The translations under genes and the position numbers were made by a program. The notes beneath the pieces were generated by a model. It did no database searches. It was not told where the DNA came from and was given only the letters and a program-made list of their open reading frames with translations. From a virus: 64,000 bases of DNA. Numbering within the stretch: position 1 is the stretch's first letter; each line of letters opens with the position of its first letter. Positions 2,866-48,601 of this stretch are shown here, piece after piece. Where the stretch lies: IMG/VR virus record IMGVR_UViG_3300027977_000007; one strand, given 5' to 3'.

Positions 2866-3078
2866 TTAAAACCCAAAACCAGTTAGTAACGTCATTATTA
2901 TATATGATATTGATAATCCTAAATAAAATAAAGCTATTGGCGACAACTTATACTTAACAATAACCTCATCGGTTGATACCATGAGTGCTTGTGCGAAGTA
3001 ATAAGCGTGTCTAATCGTTACCAAGCATGATAAGACAAATAAACACAATAATGCTTTATATATTAATAATTCTATCAT
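2866..3078 (-). CDS. small 2-TM membrane protein
   Basis: 70 aa, two hydrophobic stretches, 2-nt gaps to neighbours. Confidence 0.7.
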   Translation of the reverse strand: MIELLIYKALLCLFVLSCLVTIRHAYYFAQALMVSTDEVIVKYKLSPIALFYLGLSISYIIMTLLTGFGF

Positions 3079-4007: not shown

Positions 4008-4046
4008 ACTAACATAAATATAAATAACACTACTTAAAAATAAAGA

Positions 4047-4661
4047 TTAAGCCTTTAACCAACCGTAGTATTTATTGGTCTTTAGTATTCTATCATCTAA
4101 GCCATTTGTTCCACCATTAATTTTCTTGGTAATAAGTAGGATTGTATCTGAATTAACACCTTTGCTTGCAATATCCCATAATTTATTTTTGTCAAAATAG
4201 AATATAGCCGATTCGAATGAATAATCTAACGCAACCAACTCTGGGTCAACCATAATCTCTGGTTTATTTAAATGGTCAGATAATTGTTTATAATTGTTTT
4301 TACCTGTAGTTTGCAAGGCCCCACGACCACGAAATGTATATCCATCTTTAGAAGCTTCGTCACCATTACCCATTCTATTGGCATAAACCCTTGAACCAAT
4401 CATCTCAGGTTTTTTAGCGTATTGTTCGGCTAAATTACCAGGAAAATATTTACCGAATACTTTTTTTAGTCCAGCAACTGAATAATTTAAGTTCTCACTA
4501 AATAAAGTAAACTCACCTGTCTCATGTGATGTTTGTCCAAAAAAATGGGCGGCCATCTCAGGTGACATTTTATAATAAGCAGCAGCTGCTTTAAGTGTTT
4601 TTGGTCCAAAAGAACCATCTGCCTTAACACCAATCTTTTCTTGAAGTTTAATTAGACTCAT
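4047..4661 (-). CDS. glycoside hydrolase family 19 endolysin with short N-terminal peptidoglycan-binding-like motif
   Basis: LQEKIGVKADGSFGPKT; AHFFGQTSHETG...ENLNYS; FRGRGALQTTGKNNY; ITKKINGGTNGLDDR. Confidence 0.9.
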   Translation of the reverse strand: MSLIKLQEKIGVKADGSFGPKTLKAAAAYYKMSPEMAAHFFGQTSHETGEFTLFSENLNYSVAGLKKVFGKYFPGNLAEQYAKKPEMIGSRVYANRMGNGDEASKDGYTFRGRGALQTTGKNNYKQLSDHLNKPEIMVDPELVALDYSFESAIFYFDKNKLWDIASKGVNSDTILLITKKINGGTNGLDDRILKTNKYYGWLKA

Positions 4662-4666
4662 TTTGT

Positions 4667-5344
4667 TTATTTATTTTTATCTGAGGCGTATTTAACACCC
4701 ATTATTGTACCAACAATACTAAACGCATTTGTTAATAAGATACCAAACATATTGCTCCACGTTGAGCCAATATTTTCCGTTTCAGTATCCATATATATCG
4801 CAACTAAGTATAGTACGGTTGTTGTTATACCTACACCAATTATTAAATATAATGCGCTTCGCACTATGGTGTTGATTAATTCATTTTGTGTTCTTTTTTG
4901 TAATACATCCAAATCATTTTCAACAATTTTAAAAGCATTTTCAGCGTTTATCCGTGCTAATTCTGATTTTTTCATCTCTTCCACCAATTCGTAGCTCATG
5001 GTCTCATTTTGGCTTTTCCAAATCTGTAATTCTTGATTTTTTAACTCAATTTGGTTTTTTGATTCCTCAATATTTTTTAACGTATTTTGTAGCTCTGACA
5101 TCATGTTCTGATTCTCAGCATTTAGTGACGATAACTCAATATTTTGTTGTTGTATTTGTTTGGTGATTTCAAGACGCTTACGCCTACGTTCAATATCGAG
5201 CGCATAACACTCATCAAGATACTTCTTAAATTCATCATCAGAATCTGATAATATTAACCGAATAATATTTCCCTCTAACCCAATATTTTTCTTTTTGAGT
5301 AGTTCAATTAAATTCTTCTTTGTTATATCATCAAATTGTATCAT
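4667..5344 (-). CDS. coiled-coil protein with two C-terminal TM helices (candidate holin-like/TCS output)
   Basis: Long Q/E/N/K heptad region, then LYLIIGVGITTTVLYLVAIYM and MFGILLTNAFSIVGTIMGV; 1-nt overlap with the response regulator. Confidence 0.7.
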   Translation of the reverse strand: MIQFDDITKKNLIELLKKKNIGLEGNIIRLILSDSDDEFKKYLDECYALDIERRRKRLEITKQIQQQNIELSSLNAENQNMMSELQNTLKNIEESKNQIELKNQELQIWKSQNETMSYELVEEMKKSELARINAENAFKIVENDLDVLQKRTQNELINTIVRSALYLIIGVGITTTVLYLVAIYMDTETENIGSTWSNMFGILLTNAFSIVGTIMGVKYASDKNK

Positions 5345-5775
5345 TACTTATATATCTTAAATGGAGCTGTTCTATTTTTATAGCTTGGGTAGTCTTTCTT
5401 AAATTCTTCTAACCTAGGTTCAATCTCGTCTGATTTAACTATCCAAAACTGTGCACCAGCTTGCAATGCTTTACTTTGCTCTTCAATTTCATTTGATGAA
5501 GATATGATACCAATAACCACATGGTTACCATACTCGTAATTAATACGTCTTACCAATTCAATACCATCAAAGGATGAGCCGACCATATTTAAATCGACAA
5601 ATACGCATTCTGGTTTTTCTTCTGGGGTTGCTTGCCAATTTTTAAACAGTTCACCAGCCTCATCAGCACTCTTTAGGCTTATTAACGATAACGTTATATC
5701 TAATAGACTGCAAGAATCTTCGAAAACTAAGTGGAATAAGTCTTCATCGTCCACCAACATTATTGATTCAATCAT
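5344..5775 (-). CDS. single-domain response regulator (CheY-like receiver)
   Basis: IMLVDDE, phosphoacceptor VFVDLNM, DGIEL, IISSS, AGA..WIVKS; no output domain. Confidence 0.92.
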   Translation of the reverse strand: MIESIMLVDDEDLFHLVFEDSCSLLDITLSLISLKSADEAGELFKNWQATPEEKPECVFVDLNMVGSSFDGIELVRRINYEYGNHVVIGIISSSNEIEEQSKALQAGAQFWIVKSDEIEPRLEEFKKDYPSYKNRTAPFKIYK

Positions 5776-6893
5776 TTTTCATTATTTAGTGTAATTATTA
5801 TTTTCGTTCCGATACCCAATTTTTCTGACATCATTTTAAATCCGTGCTCTTCTAGTATTACCACACTTATATTTAATCCTAAACCAGTACCAGTTTCTAA
5901 TTGGCCTTCTTTACGCATATATGGCTTAGAATATTGAAGGAATTCATCTTGTGACATCCCACGTCCATTATCTTGTATTATTATCCTGTTAGGGTCATCA
6001 GAATAAACCTTAACAAATCTTGTATTGCTATCGTTATATCTTAAACCATTCCTTATTAAATTATCTATTGAAGTGCAAAACAAAGCTTCATTAACCATTA
6101 TCGTTGGTAAGCTATCATCCAGAATTACTTGTGATGAATACGCTGTTGTTGATAAGAAGCCAGTTAATATTTCTTTTATGTTACACTCAGTTTTTGTCAT
6201 CAAAGCATCTTTCTTAACTAGATTGGTAAATTCATATACCCCCTTATAAACTTTTTGTGTATGTTTTAAACCCTCTTTAATTAATTTAAACGGAGTCTCA
6301 ATCTTTAACTTTTTCATTTCCGTTTTTTTAAGGATACGTTCAAGTGAACTTACACCCCTAGGTATATAAATATTTATACCTGAATGCATATCATGTCTTA
6401 TTATCTTGGCCGCATGTTCAAGATATGTTTTTTTCTTTTCAACTTCAGCTAATGCTTTAATAATATTCGTTACATCCTGACTTATTGTAATATAACCTAA
6501 TAGTTTACCGTTAATATCAAACTCACCTTTTATATGTATATCAATATGAAATATGTTTCCATCTTTACCTTTATTTATTAATATACCGTTCCAAATCTTT
6601 TTATCCTCAAGTACCTTTTTATACATCTCACTAAACATCTCTTTTGGTTGTTGACCAGAATTTAAAATATTATGGTCCTTACCCAATACTTCGTTTAATT
6701 TCCAGCCAGATATATCCTCAAATTGCTTATTAACATATGTTATTTTACCATTTGAATCTGCTTTAGTTATAATAACCGCTTGGTTAATAAATGACTCTAA
6801 TAGGTGTAAATTGCTATTACTAAAAGACCTATAATTGACCAGTGCGTATATTAATAATTTAAACTCAAATAAGATATTTTTAATAAATTGCAT
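5772..6893 (-). CDS. PAS-domain sensor histidine kinase
   Basis: PAS (ADSNGKITYVNKQFEDISGW...VLGKDHNILNSG...WNGILINKGKDG), H-box IRHDM, N-box DNLIRNGLRY, G1 QDNGRGM, G2 GTGLGL. Confidence 0.92.
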   Translation of the reverse strand: MQFIKNILFEFKLLIYALVNYRSFSNSNLHLLESFINQAVIITKADSNGKITYVNKQFEDISGWKLNEVLGKDHNILNSGQQPKEMFSEMYKKVLEDKKIWNGILINKGKDGNIFHIDIHIKGEFDINGKLLGYITISQDVTNIIKALAEVEKKKTYLEHAAKIIRHDMHSGINIYIPRGVSSLERILKKTEMKKLKIETPFKLIKEGLKHTQKVYKGVYEFTNLVKKDALMTKTECNIKEILTGFLSTTAYSSQVILDDSLPTIMVNEALFCTSIDNLIRNGLRYNDSNTRFVKVYSDDPNRIIIQDNGRGMSQDEFLQYSKPYMRKEGQLETGTGLGLNISVVILEEHGFKMMSEKLGIGTKIIITLNNEK

Positions 6894-6911
6894 CTTAAGA
6901 ATTGATTTAAA

Positions 6912-6919
6912 TATAAATA
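6912..6919 (-). promoter_or_regulatory. TATTTATA motif (putative phage late promoter) heading the TCS-endolysin operon
   Basis: The same motif recurs in intergenic DNA before many genes (4019, 9141, 10802, 13798, 21764, 25905, 29003, 44237, 51022, 55938). Confidence 0.6.
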
Positions 6920-6931
6920 CCTATAGAAAAG

Positions 6932-6959
6932 CAAAACCCCCAAATATTTGGGGGTTTTG
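6932..6959. terminator. intrinsic terminator (perfect 28-bp palindrome)
   Basis: caaaacccccaaatatttgggggttttg downstream of 6987..9125. Confidence 0.8.
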
Positions 6960-6986: not shown

Positions 6987-9125
6987 TTACATACCAAATT
7001 CGTCATCTTCAGAAGATTCCAATTTTGCTAATATCATTTCAGCTCTTTTAACTGAAGGTATTGACCTATCAGAAGCTATATCATCAAATTCACTTGGTAC
7101 TATTACTGGATTTTTAACATCACCGTCAATAATAATAGCATACACACCAGACTCAGTACCTTTACGCAATTGTAAAGAACCACCACTAGACTTAGCTGGC
7201 TTGATTGGTACTACAACTTCATCTTCATCTTCATCGTCAGAATCTAAATCAATTGATAGATTTTTGATGTCTTTTTTTGATGGCTCTTTATCATCAAAAG
7301 ATGAACTATCATCATCACTCTTGGCCCAATTAGCATCATCAGTTTCTGGCTCGTCACCTTCATCACCTTCTTCATCACCTTCTTCATCGTCAAGACCCAA
7401 AGCTTCCATCATTGTATCAACATCCATTTCTTCCATTTCGTCAATCATATCATCGTCATCAGTATCCTCAGATTCTTTCAAATGAACATGTTTCTTAGCC
7501 TCTGGTGCTTGTGTTGTTCCAGTTTCTTCCCATTGACCAACCTTTGGCTTAGGTGCTTGTGTACCCTTATCAGTAGATGTCGAACCTTCGATGTGTTTCT
7601 TAGCATCTTTAGCACTTGAAACGGCTTTATCTAAATCACCTTCGGTAGCACTAGTAGAATCGATATCTTCTGATTCACCAAGCAATACCTTTGATTTGTT
7701 CCAAATATCACCAAAAACTGCATTTTCATTGATTCTAGCGTTACCCTTAACCAATCCAAGAGTATCCTGTGATTTGTAACCATACAATGCTTTCATTCTA
7801 TTGATATCCTCATTAACCAATTTGCTATCAGCAGCTGTTAAAACAACGGCTTTACCTTCAGATAATGTACCTTCCCAACGGATGCGGTATGATTCGTTAC
7901 CATCAGTCATATCGAATGTTTTTTTATCGACTCTATAACCTTCAGGTATAAGTTTTAATGCATTTCCTAATCCATTAAACTTCTCTTTAAACTTTAATCT
8001 TATCATTTTTTCTTTTATTTTTGTATTTTTATTGTTATCGTTTTCATACAAATCACGCATTGCTGCTTTTTCTAATTTTGTTGCTACTGATTTTGCGGTG
8101 TGATACGCCTTATTAAAGTCTTTTTTAATTAATAATGCTTCTACTTTTCTAACAGCGTCACCATAATCCATACTATCAGGCATATGTGAAACCAAACCAC
8201 TACTACTTAAAGCATCTATTATTTTAACTGCTGTTTCGTGCTCACCATATTTTTCTATCATATTTTTAATAGCATTCATATTTTTTTCGGAAATTGGTGG
8301 TTTAGCTGCTGCCATTTCATCTATTGGTGATTGTTGATTGTACGAATACCAATTATTAGCGTCAGATGGGTCAATACCATTTTTCATTAAATAGCTTTTA
8401 CCCACTATCTTAAAGTCAGATAATTTATTATCTGGAAAATTATCACTGATGTCCGTTTTTACGGATTGTTTAATACTATCACTATCTTCGCCAGTATAAT
8501 CCCAACCGTCAGCTATTTTATTGTCAGCTTTAAATACTGCAAAGTGTGTATAACCACCACCTAAATTTTTAATTGTATTTTCTTCAATAGCATAAGGCTT
8601 ATGTCCAGTATCTTTTAAATCGGCTTGTATATCACGACCTCTAAGATTAAGAGTCGGGGTTTGTTCACTTCTTTTTTTAGCTGAAGCTTTGATTCGTTTA
8701 ACCAAGTTTTTACCAAAGTCAGGGCCAGTAAAGCCTTGTTGTTTTGGAACCACATTAGCCCATTCTGAATTATTACCCATTCGGCTACTACCTTCAATTG
8801 CTTCTAAGGCTTTTTCGGTAAAAGCATCATCTGGTTTATTGGTATATTGAATCATTTCTTGACCATTCATGATTTCCATTTCACTATGGTAGGTTTCTTC
8901 GAAATCATCAGTATAAACATACTTGTTTGGTGCCATTTCTTTAGAATTTGGGTCAGTCTTAACCGCATTTTCAAAATCACCAACCTTCTTTTCAATATCC
9001 TTAACACCAGCTTTATTTATCTTACCACTTTCTTTTTTGTTTTTGTCAGTAACAGTTATACCAGGTGTTGTAGCTTCAGATAAGAAAGACTCATTTAAGT
9101 ATTTTTTTATTATATTTTTATCCAT
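6987..9125 (-). CDS. hypothetical, probable head/internal virion protein with very acidic C-terminal region
   Basis: 712 aa; IKKYLNE N-terminus, many (I/L)xE sites, D/E-rich tail; TATTTATA at 9141-9148. Confidence 0.6.
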   Translation of the reverse strand: MDKNIIKKYLNESFLSEATTPGITVTDKNKKESGKINKAGVKDIEKKVGDFENAVKTDPNSKEMAPNKYVYTDDFEETYHSEMEIMNGQEMIQYTNKPDDAFTEKALEAIEGSSRMGNNSEWANVVPKQQGFTGPDFGKNLVKRIKASAKKRSEQTPTLNLRGRDIQADLKDTGHKPYAIEENTIKNLGGGYTHFAVFKADNKIADGWDYTGEDSDSIKQSVKTDISDNFPDNKLSDFKIVGKSYLMKNGIDPSDANNWYSYNQQSPIDEMAAAKPPISEKNMNAIKNMIEKYGEHETAVKIIDALSSSGLVSHMPDSMDYGDAVRKVEALLIKKDFNKAYHTAKSVATKLEKAAMRDLYENDNNKNTKIKEKMIRLKFKEKFNGLGNALKLIPEGYRVDKKTFDMTDGNESYRIRWEGTLSEGKAVVLTAADSKLVNEDINRMKALYGYKSQDTLGLVKGNARINENAVFGDIWNKSKVLLGESEDIDSTSATEGDLDKAVSSAKDAKKHIEGSTSTDKGTQAPKPKVGQWEETGTTQAPEAKKHVHLKESEDTDDDDMIDEMEEMDVDTMMEALGLDDEEGDEEGDEGDEPETDDANWAKSDDDSSSFDDKEPSKKDIKNLSIDLDSDDEDEDEVVVPIKPAKSSGGSLQLRKGTESGVYAIIIDGDVKNPVIVPSEFDDIASDRSIPSVKRAEMILAKLESSEDDEFGM

Positions 9126-10872: not shown

Positions 10873-11343
10873 CTAACGAGTTGTTAATGTTAAGGCTAAA
10901 ACAATAGATGGTAACACTACAGAGCCAACAAAGCCTATTATTTTAAGGGTTTTTTGCTTTCTAACCTCTCTTTTTAATCGCTTAATTGTTTCTTCATATA
11001 TCTTTATTTCAGAACCCTTATTTTCAAGCAATAATCTTAAATTATCAGCTAAGTTTTCTTGGTTGGCCGATTTATGTTGAAGAATCTTTATTTCTTCAAG
11101 CTGTAGTTCAATGGTATGACTCTTTAGTGAATCACTAATAACGTAGTTATTTATTATGCTATCAGCAATATCTTTTTCTAAAATTGCAATTAAGATAATC
11201 TTAGCATCAGCTAAGCTCATCTCAATTGTTGTATCACCATTATTTACGTGTGTCTGTACTCTTGGTGTTGTTTTCGAGATATTTTGTGATACCATCGGCA
11301 ACGCCATTAGCAGACAACCTATTAACATTATTAGGTATCTCAT
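10873..11343 (-). CDS. signal-peptide/coiled-coil protein with C-terminal hydrophobic anchor (spanin-like partner)
   Basis: MRYLIMLIGCLLMALPMVSQ N-terminus; 104-nt out-of-frame overlap with the upstream gene. Confidence 0.55.
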   Translation of the reverse strand: MRYLIMLIGCLLMALPMVSQNISKTTPRVQTHVNNGDTTIEMSLADAKIILIAILEKDIADSIINNYVISDSLKSHTIELQLEEIKILQHKSANQENLADNLRLLLENKGSEIKIYEETIKRLKREVRKQKTLKIIGFVGSVVLPSIVLALTLTTR

Positions 11344-11632
11344 TTTTTCTATTTTTTAGGCTATCTAATTTTGATTGAATCAAAGCTATTTCAATCATTG
11401 TTATTTCTATTTCCTTTTGAATAACAACCAATTTAGTATCTAGTATCTTATTGACTAGAATTAAGCTATCATTCTTTTTGGTAATTAATATATTTTGCGC
11501 TTCTAGGGCTTTAATTTCAGATTTTTTATAATCTATATTACTACGCTGACCGAAAAAGAAGCTAATTATTAAACCAATAGACAAGACTGCTATAAAGACA
11601 AGTTTTATGTCAATTTTTTTAATGTCTATCAT
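11240..11632 (-). CDS. N-terminal TM + coiled-coil protein (i-spanin-like)
   Basis: LVFIAVLSIGLIISFFFG followed by heptads. Confidence 0.55.
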   Translation of the reverse strand: MIDIKKIDIKLVFIAVLSIGLIISFFFGQRSNIDYKKSEIKALEAQNILITKKNDSLILVNKILDTKLVVIQKEIEITMIEIALIQSKLDSLKNRKNEIPNNVNRLSANGVADGITKYLENNTKSTDTRK

Positions 11633-13847: not shown

Positions 13848-14678
13848 TTATTCGTTTATTAGATTGTATAGGTCGTGACTATTAAAACGTAATTTCATTA
13901 AGGCTTTATTTTTTACTTGTCGAATGCGTTCTTTGGTTAGGCCGTATCGTTCACCAATGGCTTCAAGTGTCATAGTCTCGCATTCGGTGTTTAAACCAAA
14001 ATACGATTCGATAATCTCTCTTTCCCTCTCATCTAATAATGATAAAACATTATCTAATCCAGCTTTAATTCTGTCATCAACTACCAATTTATCCTCATCG
14101 TCAACCTCACTAACTAATAGTTCAATAAATTCAGTACCATCTTCACCAAGAACATCATTTAATGACGAGTGTCTTGGATAATTAATTATTGAGACAGGTA
14201 TGTTATTTCTATCCAATATATCACCATATACTGGTTCCCTTTCATTTAGGGCCTCAAACTTTAAAATTTCTTTATTTTGTGCTGATATTTTATTAATAAT
14301 ATTAGCTGGCAACCTAACAACCCTAGCATTTTCATTTAGACTTTGTAGTATTGATTGTTTAATCCACCATACGGCATATGATATAAATCTAAAGCCTTTC
14401 TTATGGTCAAATCTAGTGGCAGCTTTTATTAAGCCATAATTACCCTCGTTGATTAAATCCGATAAGGGTAACCCCTGACCCTGATACTCTTTAGCTATTG
14501 AAACTACAAACTTTAGATTTGCATTTACTAAGGTATCAATTGCTTTTTGGTCCCCTTTTACTATTCTCTTAGCTAAGCTAAGCTCTTCTTTTTGTGTTAG
14601 AATAACTGATTTTCTAACATCTTTAAAATATATTGCAATGCTATCCTCAGCATCAAAACTTACAAATCTTTTACTCAT
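13848..14678 (-). CDS. RNA polymerase sigma-70 factor, RpoD/SigA family (Bacteroidetes-type, no region 1.1)
   Basis: ANLKFVVSIAKEY, DLINEGNYGLIKAATRFD, GFRFISYAVWWIKQSI, region 4 TLEAIGERYGLTKERIRQV. Confidence 0.93.
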   Translation of the reverse strand: MSKRFVSFDAEDSIAIYFKDVRKSVILTQKEELSLAKRIVKGDQKAIDTLVNANLKFVVSIAKEYQGQGLPLSDLINEGNYGLIKAATRFDHKKGFRFISYAVWWIKQSILQSLNENARVVRLPANIINKISAQNKEILKFEALNEREPVYGDILDRNNIPVSIINYPRHSSLNDVLGEDGTEFIELLVSEVDDEDKLVVDDRIKAGLDNVLSLLDEREREIIESYFGLNTECETMTLEAIGERYGLTKERIRQVKNKALMKLRFNSHDLYNLINE

Positions 14679-44776: not shown

Positions 44777-45862
44777 TTAAGCTGAACAACCAAAGCACTC
44801 AAACTGAGAATCTTTTGGTTTATTAACCACTACTTCTGACACACTTAGTTTAGAATTCGCTTCCAATTTAGACTTGGTTCTGGTATAATATACACCAGTC
44901 TTTAAACCACCTTTCCAAGCGTACATCAAAGCACTAGCTATCTTACCATACTTTGCATCCATATGGTATACATTTAATGATTGTGATTGGTCGACAAATT
45001 TATTTCTAATTATTGATAGGTCTAATAATACCCTTTGTGGTATTTCCCAAACATCCTTGTATCTAATTCTAATATCTTCTGGTATCTCAATGATATTTTG
45101 AACACTACCCTTGTTTCTAATCACTTTATCTATCATATTTGTATCCCATAGATTATTTTGAACCAGTTCATTAACTAGATATTTGTTAATTACTAAAAAC
45201 TCACCTTGACCAACACGCCTAGTGAAAAGGTTAGATGTCACAGGCTCAAATGATTCAAAAACACCTAATAATATAGCAGAAGATGCTGTTGGCATAAGGG
45301 CGATTAATAAGCTATTATACATGGGTATTGGTTCACCAATTGGTTTCGGAGACCACCCTTCGATATATGTTTCTCCTTTTGAATATGGACTACCTTCCCA
45401 AGCTGGATAGTTTTCACCTAATTCTTCAGCTAACTTCATTGATTCGTCAACAGCAGCCTTATACATTGTTTCAAATATATCAGCATTCCATTTCTTGGCT
45501 TCATCACTTTCAAACGCTATCTTTTTCTTGGCAAAAAAGTCAGCTAATCCAGCAACACCAATAGCCAAAGCACGTTGGTCAATACCAGCCGATTTACTCC
45601 ACTCATCACTCCACTTGTTTGTATCAATTACACGATTTAAGGCTCGTACAAGAACCCTAGTGGTTTTTTCGATAGTATCTAAGCTAGAATGTTCAGCTAA
45701 GTTTACTGATGCTAATGTGCATTGTGGTGTATATTGGGGTTTGGAAGCTTGGAAAATTTCGCAATTATGTACTAATACATTATTAGCATAAAAATTATTA
45801 GTATTTTCCACTTGGATGTCATATACATCCATTCTTTTTTCTAGTTTGTTAATCTTAATCAT
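44777..45862 (-). CDS. nrdA: ribonucleotide reductase alpha subunit, C-terminal half, fused to split-intein C-part
   Basis: After VHN: CEIFQ...CTLASVNL, GVAGLAD, ALMPTASS, FVDQSQSLN, GLKTGVYYTR, terminal CFGCSA. Confidence 0.93.
   Translation of the reverse strand: MIKINKLEKRMDVYDIQVENTNNFYANNVLVHNCEIFQASKPQYTPQCTLASVNLAEHSSLDTIEKTTRVLVRALNRVIDTNKWSDEWSKSAGIDQRALAIGVAGLADFFAKKKIAFESDEAKKWNADIFETMYKAAVDESMKLAEELGENYPAWEGSPYSKGETYIEGWSPKPIGEPIPMYNSLLIALMPTASSAILLGVFESFEPVTSNLFTRRVGQGEFLVINKYLVNELVQNNLWDTNMIDKVIRNKGSVQNIIEIPEDIRIRYKDVWEIPQRVLLDLSIIRNKFVDQSQSLNVYHMDAKYGKIASALMYAWKGGLKTGVYYTRTKSKLEANSKLSVSEVVVNKPKDSQFECFGCSA
45764..45862 (-). mobile_element. split intein, C-part (33 aa)
   Basis: MIKINKLEKRMDVYDIQVENTNNFYANNVLVHN followed by Cys+1 (blocks F and G). 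Confidence 0.92.
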
Positions 45863-45873
45863 AATTTGTATTT

Positions 45874-47073
45874 TTAACTGTTAATATATTCAAATTTAAA
45901 TCCTTTGTATGTCTTATTTCTACCCTTACACACCGCTAAAACAGATGTTATTTTTCCATTCATAAATTCAGCGGCAGATTTTAACGAATCAAAAATTAAT
46001 TCATTACCTTCTTTATCTATTCTCTTTAATTTCCTCCGATTATTACCAATTTTAACATCAAAGTTATAATCTTCATTTTCCCACCTAAAAATATGTTCAA
46101 ATGAATTATTTGTTTTACATTTTCTTCTGATAACGCCTTGATGAAAGCCAGTAAAATTACTAGCTTCAAATACATTATTAAATATAATTTCTTGTTCGGA
46201 TTCAACACTTTCCTTATAATACACTAGTTTAGTAATCCTCACAATACCGTTTTTAGTTGTTTTAAACCCTCTAGGTGAATCATCAATAGGTTTTTTATAA
46301 TCTAACCGTTTAGATTTAGTGTAAACTAATTCAGTATCAATATATTTAAAAAAATAACCCTTATAACTACCACCATATTTAATACATCTATAAATTAAAG
46401 ATTTAGTTTTAAATCCATATTTATTAAGTATCTCGTTAATATTTAAAATATCTATTTCTACTAATGTTTTAGAATCAATCATAACAATTAAATGTTTAAC
46501 TCTAGATTTAAAATTTTCTTTCATATTATCTATCCGTTCTTTAGTAAATTTTTTGCCTTTATTCCAATGAACATTGTTAATCTTAGCTAAATATGATGGG
46601 TTATTTTCTATCGACCTACCATACATAGGGTTTTTTCTACCTTTAGAGTTTTCACTATGTTTCTTTCTTATTTCTTCTTTTTTAGGGTTATTAGTAAAAG
46701 TGTCACCACCAGTGCCACCTATAACAATATTAGTTAATAAACCATCTTCAGTAAATCGACCATAATGTTCAATTAATTCCTTTTCGACTTTAAACGCTTC
46801 ATCTTCATTATCGGTCTCAAATATAATTTTAAAATTAGGTTTAAACCCTAAATCAATTAATTTTTTAATTGTATTAGTTTTATATGGGTTAATTTTACTA
46901 CTGTGATTGTTTTTTAATGCATCAGTATAGTGTGTTAAATGTCGTTTTCTTTTATTTTTAGCGTTATAATCACCCTTACCAATATAGAAAGGTTTATAGT
47001 TTATTTCAGAGTAATTATTACTATAATCACCCATTACTCTATCGTCTAATAAAATGTAAATATAATATCTCAT
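45874..47073 (-). CDS. free-standing GIY-YIG-type homing endonuclease (NUMOD3/NUMOD1-like domains) inside fractured nrdA
   Basis: YIYILLD...PFYIGKG...R..H...EK.LI..YGR...LTN; KKHSENSKGRKNPMYG; FDSLKSAA...CKG...KGFKFEY. Start MRYY at 47073 preferred over the ORF-track start 47094, which lies inside a hairpin. Confidence 0.85.
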   Translation of the reverse strand: MRYYIYILLDDRVMGDYSNNYSEINYKPFYIGKGDYNAKNKRKRHLTHYTDALKNNHSSKINPYKTNTIKKLIDLGFKPNFKIIFETDNEDEAFKVEKELIEHYGRFTEDGLLTNIVIGGTGGDTFTNNPKKEEIRKKHSENSKGRKNPMYGRSIENNPSYLAKINNVHWNKGKKFTKERIDNMKENFKSRVKHLIVMIDSKTLVEIDILNINEILNKYGFKTKSLIYRCIKYGGSYKGYFFKYIDTELVYTKSKRLDYKKPIDDSPRGFKTTKNGIVRITKLVYYKESVESEQEIIFNNVFEASNFTGFHQGVIRRKCKTNNSFEHIFRWENEDYNFDVKIGNNRRKLKRIDKEGNELIFDSLKSAAEFMNGKITSVLAVCKGRNKTYKGFKFEYINS

Positions 47074-47130
47074 ATTAATAAATATGCAGTACATGGTATA
47101 AAGTACACAACATGCTGCATATTTATTAAT
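47074..47130. promoter_or_regulatory. 16-bp perfect inverted repeat (RNA hairpin) over the endonuclease translation-initiation region
   Basis: attaataaatatgcag (47074-47089) / ctgcatatttattaat (47115-47130), directly abutting the ATG at 47073. Confidence 0.8.
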
Positions 47131-47437
47131 TAAAGTTAGTATCTAATTCATCATCTTCAAGTAAATCACAAGCCATAACATAACCTCTATTTACGGTATA
47201 GATTTGATGGTCTGGTGTACAAACTATTTTAATACCTTTTTCTTCATCAACTACTTCAATTACTTCAGCGTTTTCTTTAGTTTTAATTGCACCTAATATT
47301 GGTTGAAAAGTATTATCTTGACTCAGTACAAATAAGTTCTTATCATTTTCAAATCTATCGGTAATATCCCCCAAGGTTACCTTTTCAATACCCCCATTTT
47401 CGTTAATTATAGTTATAATAGTTTCACCATCCAAACA
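47126..47437 (-). mobile_element. split intein, N-part (103 aa)
   Basis: CLDGETIIT (block A)...IVCTPDHQIYTVNRGYVMACDLLEDDEL (block B, TxxH). Confidence 0.92.
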
Positions 47438-48601
47438 ACATAAATTTGATTGTTTTATCGGACCAATATTACTTTGCATATTACGCTTATTAGCGTTATC
47501 TTTAAACATAACATATGGTCGACCACTTTCCACCTGAGACTTTATTATTGAATCAAAGATATCTTTAGGGTTAACTTTTTTACCTAATCCTAAATCAACC
47601 GCTTTTTGGTATTCTTCATCAAATTCGGAACCCCATAGGTCATAAAGTGGTTTTAAGCCAGCTTTTTTTAAGTCATTAGGGCAAAATAAATACCAAGCTT
47701 CATTATTCTCCAATTTCTTCATGAAAAGGTCATTTATAATAACCGATGTGAATAAATCACGACTTCTCATTTGCTCATCACCAATGGGTAATGTTAAGTT
47801 AAGGAAATCAAAGATATCCCTATGCCATAGAGATAGATATAAAGCACAACTACCAGAACGAGAACCTTGCTTATAAAATCGCATCTTGCTCTGAACCATA
47901 TCGGCTAACCTAACTACACCACCAGCGTTGCCTTGGAACGATTCTACGATACTCTCTTTGCTTCGTAATGGGTCAATCAATAGTCCAATGCCAGAACCCT
48001 CCTTAGAGGCCGCAGAAATCTTTGTAAGCGTGTTTTCAATTCCTTCAAATGAATCATCTTCTAAGTGTGTAAGATTACAACTAATCATACCACCTCTTTT
48101 ATCGATACCAGCGTTTGTATATGTTGGTGTTGCAAAGTTACCTCTTTTATTGGTTAATTCTTCCAATAATGCAGACTTAGACTTATCATCGTCACCAAAT
48201 AAATGATTTGCAACCCTTAGATACATACAAGAAGGTAATTCAATTGGGGTTTTCTTATCATCCCTCATTGAATACTTGCTTAAGAATGTAGTTGCGGCAA
48301 AAAAATCATATGTTAAGTCAACTGGTTGTAATTCCTTATTAATTAACTTAGATTGACGGCTTAATAAAATACGGCCACCTAATAAAGAATAATCTGGGTG
48401 TTGTATTATCTTATCAGCCGATTTAAACGCTATTATTTCATCAATTTCCGTTGTTGTGATATTATCACTAATCAATGGTATTACTTCTTGAAATAAAAGG
48501 TCGCTATCAACCAGTAATCCAGCAGCTTGTGTCTTGATTCTCGTAAGAATCTTATTAGGCATAAATGCCTGTGATGTTTTATCTCTCTTTAAAATTCGCA
48601 T
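47126..48601 (-). CDS. nrdA: ribonucleotide reductase alpha subunit, N-terminal half, fused to split-intein N-part
   Basis: ATP cone (MRILKRD), ATPTYTNAG, ISCNL, GIG, QGSRSGS, ESGRPY, IKQSNLC, then intein CLDGET. Confidence 0.93.
   Translation of the reverse strand: MRILKRDKTSQAFMPNKILTRIKTQAAGLLVDSDLLFQEVIPLISDNITTTEIDEIIAFKSADKIIQHPDYSLLGGRILLSRQSKLINKELQPVDLTYDFFAATTFLSKYSMRDDKKTPIELPSCMYLRVANHLFGDDDKSKSALLEELTNKRGNFATPTYTNAGIDKRGGMISCNLTHLEDDSFEGIENTLTKISAASKEGSGIGLLIDPLRSKESIVESFQGNAGGVVRLADMVQSKMRFYKQGSRSGSCALYLSLWHRDIFDFLNLTLPIGDEQMRSRDLFTSVIINDLFMKKLENNEAWYLFCPNDLKKAGLKPLYDLWGSEFDEEYQKAVDLGLGKKVNPKDIFDSIIKSQVESGRPYVMFKDNANKRNMQSNIGPIKQSNLCCLDGETIITIINENGGIEKVTLGDITDRFENDKNLFVLSQDNTFQPILGAIKTKENAEVIEVVDEEKGIKIVCTPDHQIYTVNRGYVMACDLLEDDELDTNFN

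Follow-up and report, generated by a model that had tools for sequence, protein, structure and literature searches.

When a phage lyses its host determines its burst size and its fitness. To our knowledge, the only well-understood ways of adjusting lysis after infection are T4-type lysis inhibition and the use of holin/antiholin isoforms. In T4 lysis inhibition, the holin T is countered by the antiholins RI and RIII; superinfection is sensed in the periplasm, and RI binds the periplasmic domain of the holin (PMC11413866). The Vibrio cholerae phage ICP1 has its own holin and antiholin, TeaA and ArrA (PMC7182436), and in Firmicutes the LytSR system controls the holin-like proteins LrgAB and CidAB (e.g. 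PMC3507848). Our search of the literature returned no account of holins fused to sensors or coupled to two-component systems, nor of a module built from a kinase, a regulator and a membrane hairpin, and a review of jumbo phages describes just a divergent receiver, unrelated to kinases (PMC7824862).

The DNA analysed here (the window, 64,000 nt) comes from a 142-kb IMG/VR virus record with a CheckV completeness of 42%. Its source is an uncultured giant phage whose hosts are Bacteroidota-type bacteria; complete relatives span 321–430 kb, and megablast found no counterpart among phages for 20 kb of the window. A first-pass annotation, made from the sequence alone, had placed four minus-strand genes in a tight series, and the ORFs were recovered at exactly those positions, in the order PAS histidine kinase, receiver-only regulator, coiled-coil protein with two transmembrane (TM) segments (hereafter the hairpin protein) and GH19 endolysin (Table 1). 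The three junctions also read as described, with an ATGA overlap between kinase and regulator, a TAATG overlap between regulator and hairpin gene, and a 5-nt gap from the hairpin gene stop to the GH19 start. We propose, with a probability of about 0.5, that the locus holds the split two-component form of a phage-only, sensor-gated membrane switch for lysis. Phages carrying such a switch probably time the bursting of their hosts by reading the state of the cell.

Table 1 Features of the locus and its surroundings in the window
Feature	Position	Strand	Remarks
70-aa 2-TM ORF	2866..3078	−	Lies four genes downstream of GH19; conservation confined to closest relatives; sole other holin-sized membrane gene nearby; no charged C-terminus
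Next TATTTATA copy	4019..4026	−	Precedes a 158-aa gene
GH19 endolysin, 204 aa	4047..4661	−	phrog_181 endolysin, 4.7e-53; Pfam Glyco_hydro_19, 26.9 bits against a cut-off of 25.5
Hairpin protein, 225 aa	4667..5344	−	TM segments at about 156–186 and 199–217; TM2 helix taken as 196–219
Candidate TM hairpin output module, aa 156–219	4688..4879	−	Same module fused to PAS, PAS-PAS or GAF elsewhere
Receiver-only response regulator, 143 aa	5344..5775	−	Response_reg, 6.5e-11, residues 5–115
Soluble histidine kinase, 373 aa	5772..6893	−	PAS_9, 2e-12; HATPase_c, 1.7e-10 (above cut-off)
TATTTATA, extended form ATATTTATA	6912..6919	−	Phage-specific promoter-like motif, 26 nt before the kinase start
Intrinsic-terminator-like hairpin	6932..6959	−	12-bp stem, 6 GC pairs, 4-nt loop, T-run; ends upstream transcription unit

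The unit had further been credited with its own sequence motif, with upstream insulation by a terminator and with action late in infection. Motif and terminator are both present. The motif is not private to the unit, as it lies 13–41 nt upstream of 13 of the 57 minus-strand genes, among them those for a baseplate wedge protein and the DnaB helicase; in total, the window holds 34 copies of TATTTATA against 23.4 ± 4.6 in shuffles. The copy that follows the endolysin gene is likely the start of the next transcription unit. With a copy in front of the DnaB helicase gene as well, the motif does not establish late timing.

Both signalling proteins carry the residues predicted to serve phosphotransfer. 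The kinase is laid out as a single PAS domain (aa 40–143), a divergent putative DHp with the H-box RHD (His167), and a HATPase_c domain whose N, G1 and G2 boxes mark it as a histidine kinase. No Pfam HisKA-type model matches the protein; the invariant AAKIIRHDMHSG is found at the distance from the CA domain expected for an H-box. Across 103 family kinase cores, the H-box RHD, the N-box, G1 (DNGRG) and G2 (GTGLGL) are intact and invariant, with conservation of NLIRNGLRYND, DNGRG and GTGLGL at 95% or above. The regulator is a stand-alone CheY-like receiver, with D9, D10, D61, S92 and K114 in place and no output domain in a Pfam scan. These five residues are invariant across 26 diverse receivers, and a 25-aa C-terminal tail is also invariant across the family. 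The intact phosphotransfer residues reported at the outset are thus borne out for both partners. The receiver is divergent (nearest solved relative, a Cytophaga response regulator, 3ILH, 5e-7) and belongs to a family of at least 3,795 protein clusters.

The sensor domain offers a clue to the input. The best solved matches of the kinase PAS were MmoS (3EWK, 2.2e-18), NifL (2GJ3, 2.2e-12) and Aer (8DIK, 2.9e-11), with LOV domains ranking below and the LOV cysteine motif absent. We take all three entries (3EWK, 2GJ3 and 8DIK) to be FAD-binding PAS structures. About one-fifth of the kinases in the clade are without a sensor domain, which counts against a sensor-gated switch.

The hairpin protein consists of a small N-domain (aa 1 to ~45), a long helix (37–184) that continues into TM1, a short acidic outer loop, and a TM2 followed by a basic C-terminus (KYASDKNK). 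The positive-inside rule places the N-domain, by prediction, in the cytoplasm. With two TM helices, a charged C-terminus and a position beside an endolysin, the protein has the structural marks of a holin, at a length (225 aa) exceeding that of most holins. By homology it is not recognisable as one: no Pfam or PHROG family was found, and a Foldseek search of its AF2 model against the PDB gave nothing at E ≤ 0.001, a result to be expected because the model is one long helix. Its neighbours in a protein atlas are unnamed viral clusters. Every face of TM2 is conserved without change in 114 sequences (N198, T205, N206, S209, T213 and G212xxxG216 among the residues), and the helix stays nearly invariant while hairpin sequences elsewhere drop to 40% identity. 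The distance from RLEITKQ in the N-domain to QKKTQ ahead of the membrane takes the values 50, 57, 64, 71, 78, 85 and 92, all of them 1 mod 7; this spacing rule was obeyed by 86 of 88 hairpin sequences, the remaining two being at +11. In PAS-fused hairpins, the distance from DIT to KSQ is 49 or 42. Length variation by whole heptads is, at the level of sequence, the behaviour of a signalling coiled coil.

The family was seen in viruses only, with the hairpin present on at least 493 IMG/VR stretches. A contig scan also found it on four MAG contigs, each from a different phylum; we read these as mis-binned phage DNA and rejected them both as cellular homologs and as evidence of hosts. Recent capture of a host two-component system as a "moron" was likewise rejected for a family that is virus-only, abundant and strongly conserved. 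In tblastn searches of 50,697 GenBank phage records, neither the hairpin protein nor the regulator had a match and the kinase had generic Aer-type PAS matches only. Absence from these records is, in our view, why the family has escaped study.

Gene neighbourhoods were compared among relatives. The regulator gene lies directly upstream of the hairpin gene at 114 of 117 non-redundant viral loci, and a histidine kinase lies within 1.5 kb at 106 of 110 (these and all synteny counts below ignore shared ancestry among loci). The conserved unit is the trio of kinase, regulator and hairpin protein. Two loci (L153 and L157) are exceptions in which the hairpin protein has no adjacent regulator or kinase and the upstream genes have no Pfam family.

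Domain swaps suggest how the parts of the trio are connected. The last ~95 residues of the hairpin protein recur C-terminal to a GAF domain (P0031), to PAS-PAS (P0057) and to a single PAS (P0055 and P0043), and in P0043 the PAS shares 46% identity (1e-44) with that of the window's kinase. The TM hairpin is therefore best read as an output module. At the other end, the N-domain is also found fused to HisKA and HATPase_c (37% identity, 2e-16), at loci ordered multi-PAS kinase, regulator (143 aa) and N-domain kinase, with the receiver directly before the fusion; on this arrangement, the N-domain is a putative input coupled to the regulator. One further fusion, of the N-domain to a FecCD permease (P0077), is probably a chimera made in gene calling and was discounted. 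Complex prediction for the regulator with hairpin residues 1–158 returned a median score of 0.32 (runs of 0.57, 0.10 and 0.32) against 0.00 for the best control, a weak pass. Among solved complexes, 58 of 80 passed the same mark, as did 2 of 110 mismatched pairs; passes at or below 0.60 came from just 7 of the 80 solved complexes plus both passing mismatches. Contact agreement in the three runs was at least 78%, and partner pLDDT at least 84.

Combined with the adjacency of the two genes, the swaps and this prediction support the proposal in the first-pass annotation that the receiver probably acts through the 2-TM protein. Near-invariant gene order, domain swaps and heptad linkers likewise favour its view of kinase, receiver and 2-TM protein as one functional unit. 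The proposed docking site needs to be redrawn, from the coiled coil in general to the conserved N-domain and the start of the helix.

We then considered how closely the trio is tied to lysis genes. The GH19 gene product has the catalytic domain and the family match of a phage endolysin, with an N-terminal segment resembling peptidoglycan-binding domains, and its gene is 66% identical in DNA to the endolysin gene of Flavobacterium phage immuto. No TM segment was seen in a hydropathy scan, and the enzyme therefore needs a hole-forming partner. The strict kinase–regulator–2-TM–GH19 synteny looked for at the outset proved to be confined to the closest relatives, the only ones in which GH19 immediately follows the hairpin gene; one relative, 71% complete, has ~59 kb between the trio and GH19. 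Within 6 kb of the 68 loci of the trio clade, a GH19-type lysin is present at 34, GH19 or Pfam Phage_holin_4_1 at 40, and GH19, Phage_holin_4_1 or a softer marker at 49. The trio is thus not found mostly without a lysin nearby, the pattern that had been named as telling against a lysis role; for GH19 alone, at 34 of 68, the outcome is narrow. Gene orders in the clade vary (for example lysin-like, holin4_1, kinase, regulator, hairpin). Family searches for Phage_holin_4_1 and GH24 in five relatives were mostly empty, and one complete 321-kb relative had no convincing match to GH19 or GH24.

A second clade, in which PAS-PAS-hairpin genes have no kinase or regulator nearby, carries a lysin or holin homolog within ~2 kb at 46 of 56 loci, and at 13 of those 46 the lysin lies at most 150 nt downstream. 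The lysins beside PAS-PAS-hairpins are of three types (GH19, Peptidase_M15_3 and phrog_33083-like). With several lysin families adjoining both architectures, these data uphold the earlier assignment of the module to the lysis genes of the phage.

From these observations, we outline a pathway in which the soluble kinase would sense a cytoplasmic cue through its NifL/MmoS/Aer-like PAS, probably a flavin-based readout of redox or energy state. As its intact motifs suggest, the kinase would pass phosphate to the receiver-only regulator, which may then dock on the hairpin N-domain, a step that gene order, domain swaps and the weak complex prediction point to. A phase-rigid coiled coil would relay the change to the C-terminal two-helix hairpin, which would alter its state in the membrane by oligomerising, opening or depolarising. 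Soluble GH19 would be let out directly, or a separate holin would be triggered or restrained; the net effect would be lysis timed by the state of the host. In its broadest form, to which we give slightly less than even odds, the family represents an undescribed class of lysis protein, widespread in environmental phages, in which intracellular PAS or GAF sensors (in giant phages, a phage kinase–receiver phosphorelay) set the activity of a membrane hairpin, and lysis is scheduled by host metabolic or redox state.

Two forms of the lysis switch differ in what the hairpin does. It may be the holin itself, sensor-gated and releasing GH19, a sub-case that we consider unlikely. A gene 5 nt upstream of a TM-less endolysin is in the classical holin position, and two TMs, an N-in/C-in topology and a basic C-terminus fit this role, as does the habit of PAS-hairpin genes of overlapping or abutting lysins of different families. 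The 142-kb record has no Phage_holin_4_1 or c3-type small 2-TM homolog, and no match to Phage_holin_4_1 passed the cut-off in three complete trio genomes. Against this stand the lack of any holin family match, the atypical size and a record that, at 42% completeness, could encode a holin elsewhere. Moreover, many relatives carry Phage_holin_4_1 alongside the hairpin gene, with canonical holin genes adjoining it. The 2-TM protein may therefore be a trigger or an antiholin and not the holin. As such a regulator of a separate holin, which we regard as possible if somewhat doubtful, it would either serve as an antiholin or let a small, gated leak of ions collapse the membrane potential and thereby set off whichever holin the phage has. 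Holins fire early when the membrane potential collapses. The hairpin co-occurs in variable order with unrelated holin types (Phage_holin_4_1 and small 2-TM proteins), and its TM helix stays constant while the neighbouring holin type changes, which fits a generic membrane trigger and not a specific partner. However, the window has no convincing separate holin, and ion conduction and holin contact are both conjectural.

The remaining explanations detach the module from lysis or the hairpin from output. GH19 adjacency is loose, with 34 of 68 trio loci lacking GH19 within 6 kb, and holins seldom show a TM helix that is almost wholly invariant, a pattern that could instead reflect binding to a conserved host membrane machine unrelated to lysis. 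The module might govern another membrane process, such as superinfection exclusion, control of host transport, respiration or motility, or envelope remodelling, its proximity to lysis genes reflecting the clustering of envelope genes. A TM2 that is invariant on all faces would fit a helix that binds a conserved membrane protein of the host; 19 of the 68 trio loci have none of the lysis markers within 6 kb, GH19 can be 59 kb away, and many genes neighbouring trio loci encode small membrane proteins without an assigned role (for many neighbours, neither Pfam nor PHROG gave a family). The link to lysins nonetheless appears in both phage clades and both architectures and extends to three or more lysin families, with genes that often abut or overlap, and we hold a non-lysis role to be improbable. 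Far less probable still is that the TM hairpin merely anchors a scaffold placing kinase and receiver at the membrane, with output elsewhere, for example by the receiver acting on host proteins. Receiver-only regulators commonly have several partners, and an N-domain feeding a kinase core shows that the pathway can branch. Yet anchors do not keep all faces, polar residues included, invariant while other parts reach 40% identity, a tether would not need heptad-exact spacing to the membrane, and the hairpin occupies the C-terminal output position behind PAS or GAF.

If the lysis-switch reading is true, phages compute lysis time from the internal state of the host, and two-component signalling gains a new type of output, in which a heptad-locked coiled coil carries the action of a receiver to a membrane hairpin. 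The system would then be a cytoplasmic counterpart of lysis inhibition based on signal transduction. The family could also supply compact, modular, sensor-gated membrane switches for engineering.

Set beside the described systems, the proposed switch shares with T4 lysis inhibition a signal-dependent lysis time after infection and a protein acting on the hole-forming membrane step. It differs in that its sensors are cytoplasmic (PAS/GAF, or kinase and receiver) and would work through phosphorylation and a coiled coil, and the two show no sequence relationship. ICP1 likewise exemplifies regulated lysis timing outside the T-even phages, with lineage-specific membrane proteins beside lysis genes, but TeaA and ArrA are unrelated to the hairpin protein and have no signalling domains, kinase or receiver. 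LytSR also ties a two-component system to holin-like membrane proteins and to cell energy or redox state; it is cellular, however, and its regulator binds DNA and acts on transcription, whereas the phage regulator has no output domain and would act on a membrane protein. A further parallel is with CheY–FliM and DivK–DivL/PleC, in which a receiver-only protein with intact phospho-acceptor residues must produce its output by binding a partner. The N-domain kinase variants recall DivK acting on kinases. In these phages, the protein to be bound would be the membrane hairpin protein, whose N-domain is undescribed. Finally, as in PAS–coiled-coil–effector proteins of the FixL, YF1 and NifL type (PDB 4GCZ, 2GJ3 and 3EWK, all matched by the window's PAS), the PAS domain of the phage proteins ends in a DIT-type motif followed by a coiled-coil linker that varies by heptads; in the one-component phage forms, the effector behind that linker is a two-helix membrane hairpin and not an enzyme domain.

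The conserved unit is the kinase-receiver-hairpin trio rather than the four-gene quartet. In the window itself, all four ORFs lie exactly where the first-pass annotation placed them, and its ATGA overlap, TAATG overlap, 5-nt gap, and upstream terminator were all confirmed. The kinase combines one PAS domain with HATPase_c, the regulator is a receiver with no further domain, and the fourth product is a GH19 endolysin (phrog_181, 4.7e-53) in which a hydropathy scan finds no TM segment. The 2-TM (hairpin) protein, with both TM segments C-terminal, is assigned to no Pfam or PHROG family.

Features located in the window and in related loci (L-handles)
Feature	Location	Comment
PAS histidine kinase	window 5772-6893(-)	trio
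Receiver-only regulator	window 5344-5775(-)	trio
Hairpin (2-TM) protein	window 4667-5344(-)	trio
GH19 endolysin	window 4047-4661(-)	
712-aa protein	window 6987-9125(-)	directly upstream of the module
Overlapping gene pair	window 10873-11343(-) and 11240-11632(-)	different frames, ~4 kb upstream of the kinase gene
Phage sigma factor	window 13848-14678	
Ribonucleotide reductase large subunit	window 44777-48601(-)	two ORFs (phrog_84 N- and C-parts), homing-endonuclease-like gene between
TAnnTTTG-type -7 boxes (e.g. GTACCTTTG)	window, upstream of genes starting 1165, 15226, 19615, 20691, 56569	
Multi-PAS kinase, 143-aa receiver, second kinase with the hairpin-protein N-domain at the sensor position	L172:3088-6463, L173:2236-5611	
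Hairpin protein with N-domain	L153:3150-3806, L157:5574-6230	no adjacent receiver or kinase

Two scans of IMG/VR, one starting from the kinase and one from the 2-TM protein, gave 160 loci, from which duplicates were then removed. The receiver gene immediately precedes the 2-TM gene in 114/117 non-redundant loci, and a kinase lies <1.5 kb away in 106/110. Receiver identity across the locus set is 60-83%, C-terminal tail included. The kinase is the variable member: its length runs from ~250 aa, without a sensor domain, to ~700 aa, with multiple PAS domains, and it is sometimes duplicated, yet the H, N, G1, and G2 boxes are invariant throughout. Of the proposed HK-RR-2TM-GH19 synteny, the trio therefore stands as conserved, and GH19 adjacency is limited to the window and its closest relatives (loci L002/L082, L083, and L084). 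GH19 is absent within ~6 kb in 34/62 full-flank loci (tblastn), lies ~59 kb from the trio in one 71%-complete relative, and has no convincing match, nor does GH24, in a complete 321-kb relative.

A conserved 62-aa 2-TM protein (weak DUF4395 match, motif CPSKW) directly precedes the kinase gene in 31 loci, including L015, L031, and L067, and may serve kinases without obvious sensors as a membrane partner. In L153 and L157 the hairpin gene is preceded by genes for conserved 297-aa and 427-aa proteins without a Pfam family. The trio also occurs on MAG contigs labelled as four unrelated phyla (L168-L171; Verrucomicrobia, Gemmatimonadota, Bdellovibrionota, Alphaproteobacteria), most likely phage contigs mis-binned into MAGs.

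The window belongs to a 142-kb IMG/VR virus record of 42% completeness (CheckV); its GC content is ~32%, and the minus strand carries nearly every gene. Phage genes include baseplate wedge, SbcC-like nuclease, sigma factor, DnaB helicase, and split ribonucleotide reductase. Complete relatives have genomes of 321-430 kb, which makes the virus a jumbo phage. It probably infects Bacteroidota, because the GH19 gene shares 66% DNA identity with Flavobacterium phage endolysin genes and 73%, over a shorter stretch, with a Cellulophaga phage gene, the nearest solved relative of the receiver is a Cytophaga protein, and the window contains TAnnTTTG-type -7 boxes, which we take to be a Bacteroidota element. 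In the window, ATATTTATA precedes 13 genes, a set separate from those with TAnnTTTG-type boxes, which suggests two promoter classes read by host sigma and by the phage-encoded sigma factor. The TATTTATA motif assigned to the unit is present, but it is not private: as a general phage promoter-like element it stands 13-41 nt upstream of 13/57 minus-strand genes of the window, baseplate and helicase genes among these. It marks a phage-specific transcription class, which does not in itself prove late timing. The 712-aa protein, whose C-terminal third is very acidic and of low complexity, has its own ATATTTATA motif and no Pfam or PHROG family.

When ORFs of the trio loci were clustered, the only widely shared neighbors were lysis-type genes. 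Among 68 full-flank trio loci, the GH19-type lysin cluster occurs in 34; Phage_holin_4_1 (Pfam 1e-6, above the cut-off) occurs in 8 trio loci, a phrog_33083-like lysin in 9, and a holin-sized 2-TM protein in 19. The two robust markers, GH19 or Pfam holin, cover 40 of the 68 and any of the four covers 49, with shared ancestry uncorrected, where chance would give ~4% within 6 kb for a single-copy gene in a 320-kb genome. Gene order differs between loci: lysin-like, holin, HK, RR, hairpin in L152 and L161; hairpin, small 2-TM, GH19, lysin-like in L006. An independent sample comes from one-component forms, in which the hairpin is fused straight to PAS, PAS-PAS, or GAF (at least 493 stretches from a scan seeded with such forms). 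A lysin or holin homolog lies within ~2 kb in 46/56 non-redundant PAS-PAS-hairpin loci (shared ancestry uncorrected), with the lysin starting <150 nt downstream in 13 of these 46; three lysin types are represented, and no kinase or receiver is found near the PAS-PAS-hairpin gene. The gene for P0055, a one-component relative, shares 4 nt with a Peptidase_M15_3 gene, and downstream of the GAF-hairpin gene come a small 2-TM gene, GH19, and a glucosaminidase. Conserved synteny alone is unlikely to explain this linkage, because arrangements, lysin families, and phage clades all vary. Separately, the overlapping gene pair in the window resembles a spanin pair or unimolecular spanin, one product (130 aa) having an N-terminal TM helix and coiled coil and the other (156 aa) a lipobox-like signal (LIGC) and C-terminal TM helix; it has no PHROG match.

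The 2-TM protein is a signalling protein built of exchangeable modules. Only 259 relatives came out of a profile search against 1.84 billion representatives, and the family is viral only in the Atlas. In the AF2 model (pLDDT 85), a small N-domain leads into a single helix (37-184) continuous with TM1, followed by a tight turn and TM2. In some relatives the C-terminal ~95 residues (coiled-coil end and hairpin) follow GAF (P0031), PAS-PAS (P0057), or PAS (P0055 and P0043) within a single protein. As the P0043 PAS matches that of the window kinase (46% identity, 1e-44), the same sensor connects to the hairpin in two ways, directly or via kinase and receiver. Conversely, the N-terminal ~110 residues are fused to a HisKA+HATPase_c core in P0121, P0143, and others (37% identity, 2e-16), and at these loci the N-domain-kinase gene directly follows that for a 143-aa receiver, which in turn follows that for a multi-PAS kinase; the L172/L173 operon would be a phage-borne kinase-receiver-kinase cascade. 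Thus receiver and N-domain stay paired across different outputs, and the hairpin serves as output to different inputs.

The distance from RLEITKQ (N-domain) to QKKTQ (pre-membrane) takes seven values (50, 57, 64, 71, 78, 85, and 92), varying by whole heptads in 86/88 sequences; the remaining two add 11 residues. Six independent length changes would all fall in a single residue class mod 7 with a probability of ~1 in 10^5. In PAS-fused forms the DIT-to-KSQ distance is 49 or 42. This phase conservation argues that a conformational signal runs along the helix from input to membrane hairpin, and against the coiled coil as a mere tether. At the membrane, all faces of TM2 (196-219) are essentially invariant across 114 sequences, with N198, T205, N206, S209, T213, and a GxxxG pair among the conserved positions, and TM1 retains a GVG/TT pattern. 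An anchor would not need such conservation, which fits close packing in an oligomer, a channel, or binding to a host component that is itself conserved. Basic residues lie ahead of TM1 and at the C-terminus and acidic ones in the loop, a pattern that assigns the N-terminal part to the cytoplasm, where receiver, PAS, and GAF domains act.

PAS domains of MmoS (PAS-A), NifL, and Aer bind FAD. These are the closest to the window kinase PAS, which lacks the LOV cysteine motif, and for both reasons our best guess for the host state sensed is a redox or energy cue. The proposed binding of the receiver to the hairpin protein draws weak support from complex prediction with hairpin residues 1-158 (median score 0.32, best control 0.00), with at least 78% contact agreement between runs and partner pLDDT of at least 84. 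The mark used is reached by 58/80 solved complexes and 2/110 mismatched pairs; at scores of 0.60 or below, only 7 of the 80 solved complexes reach it, together with both passing mismatches.

What the hairpin would do in lysis can be read in two ways. Its gene stands ahead of that of a soluble endolysin, and the partial record (42% complete) contains no other recognizable holin; both points favor a holin. The canonical holins of changing type that accompany the hairpin gene in relatives favor a trigger or antiholin regulating a separate holin. That the protein acts outside lysis altogether we regard as rather unlikely.

No holin or antiholin that is fused to a sensor or coupled to a two-component system turned up in the literature searched. 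In function, T4 lysis inhibition (PMC11413866) and ICP1 TeaA/ArrA (PMC7182436) come closest; neither involves signalling domains.
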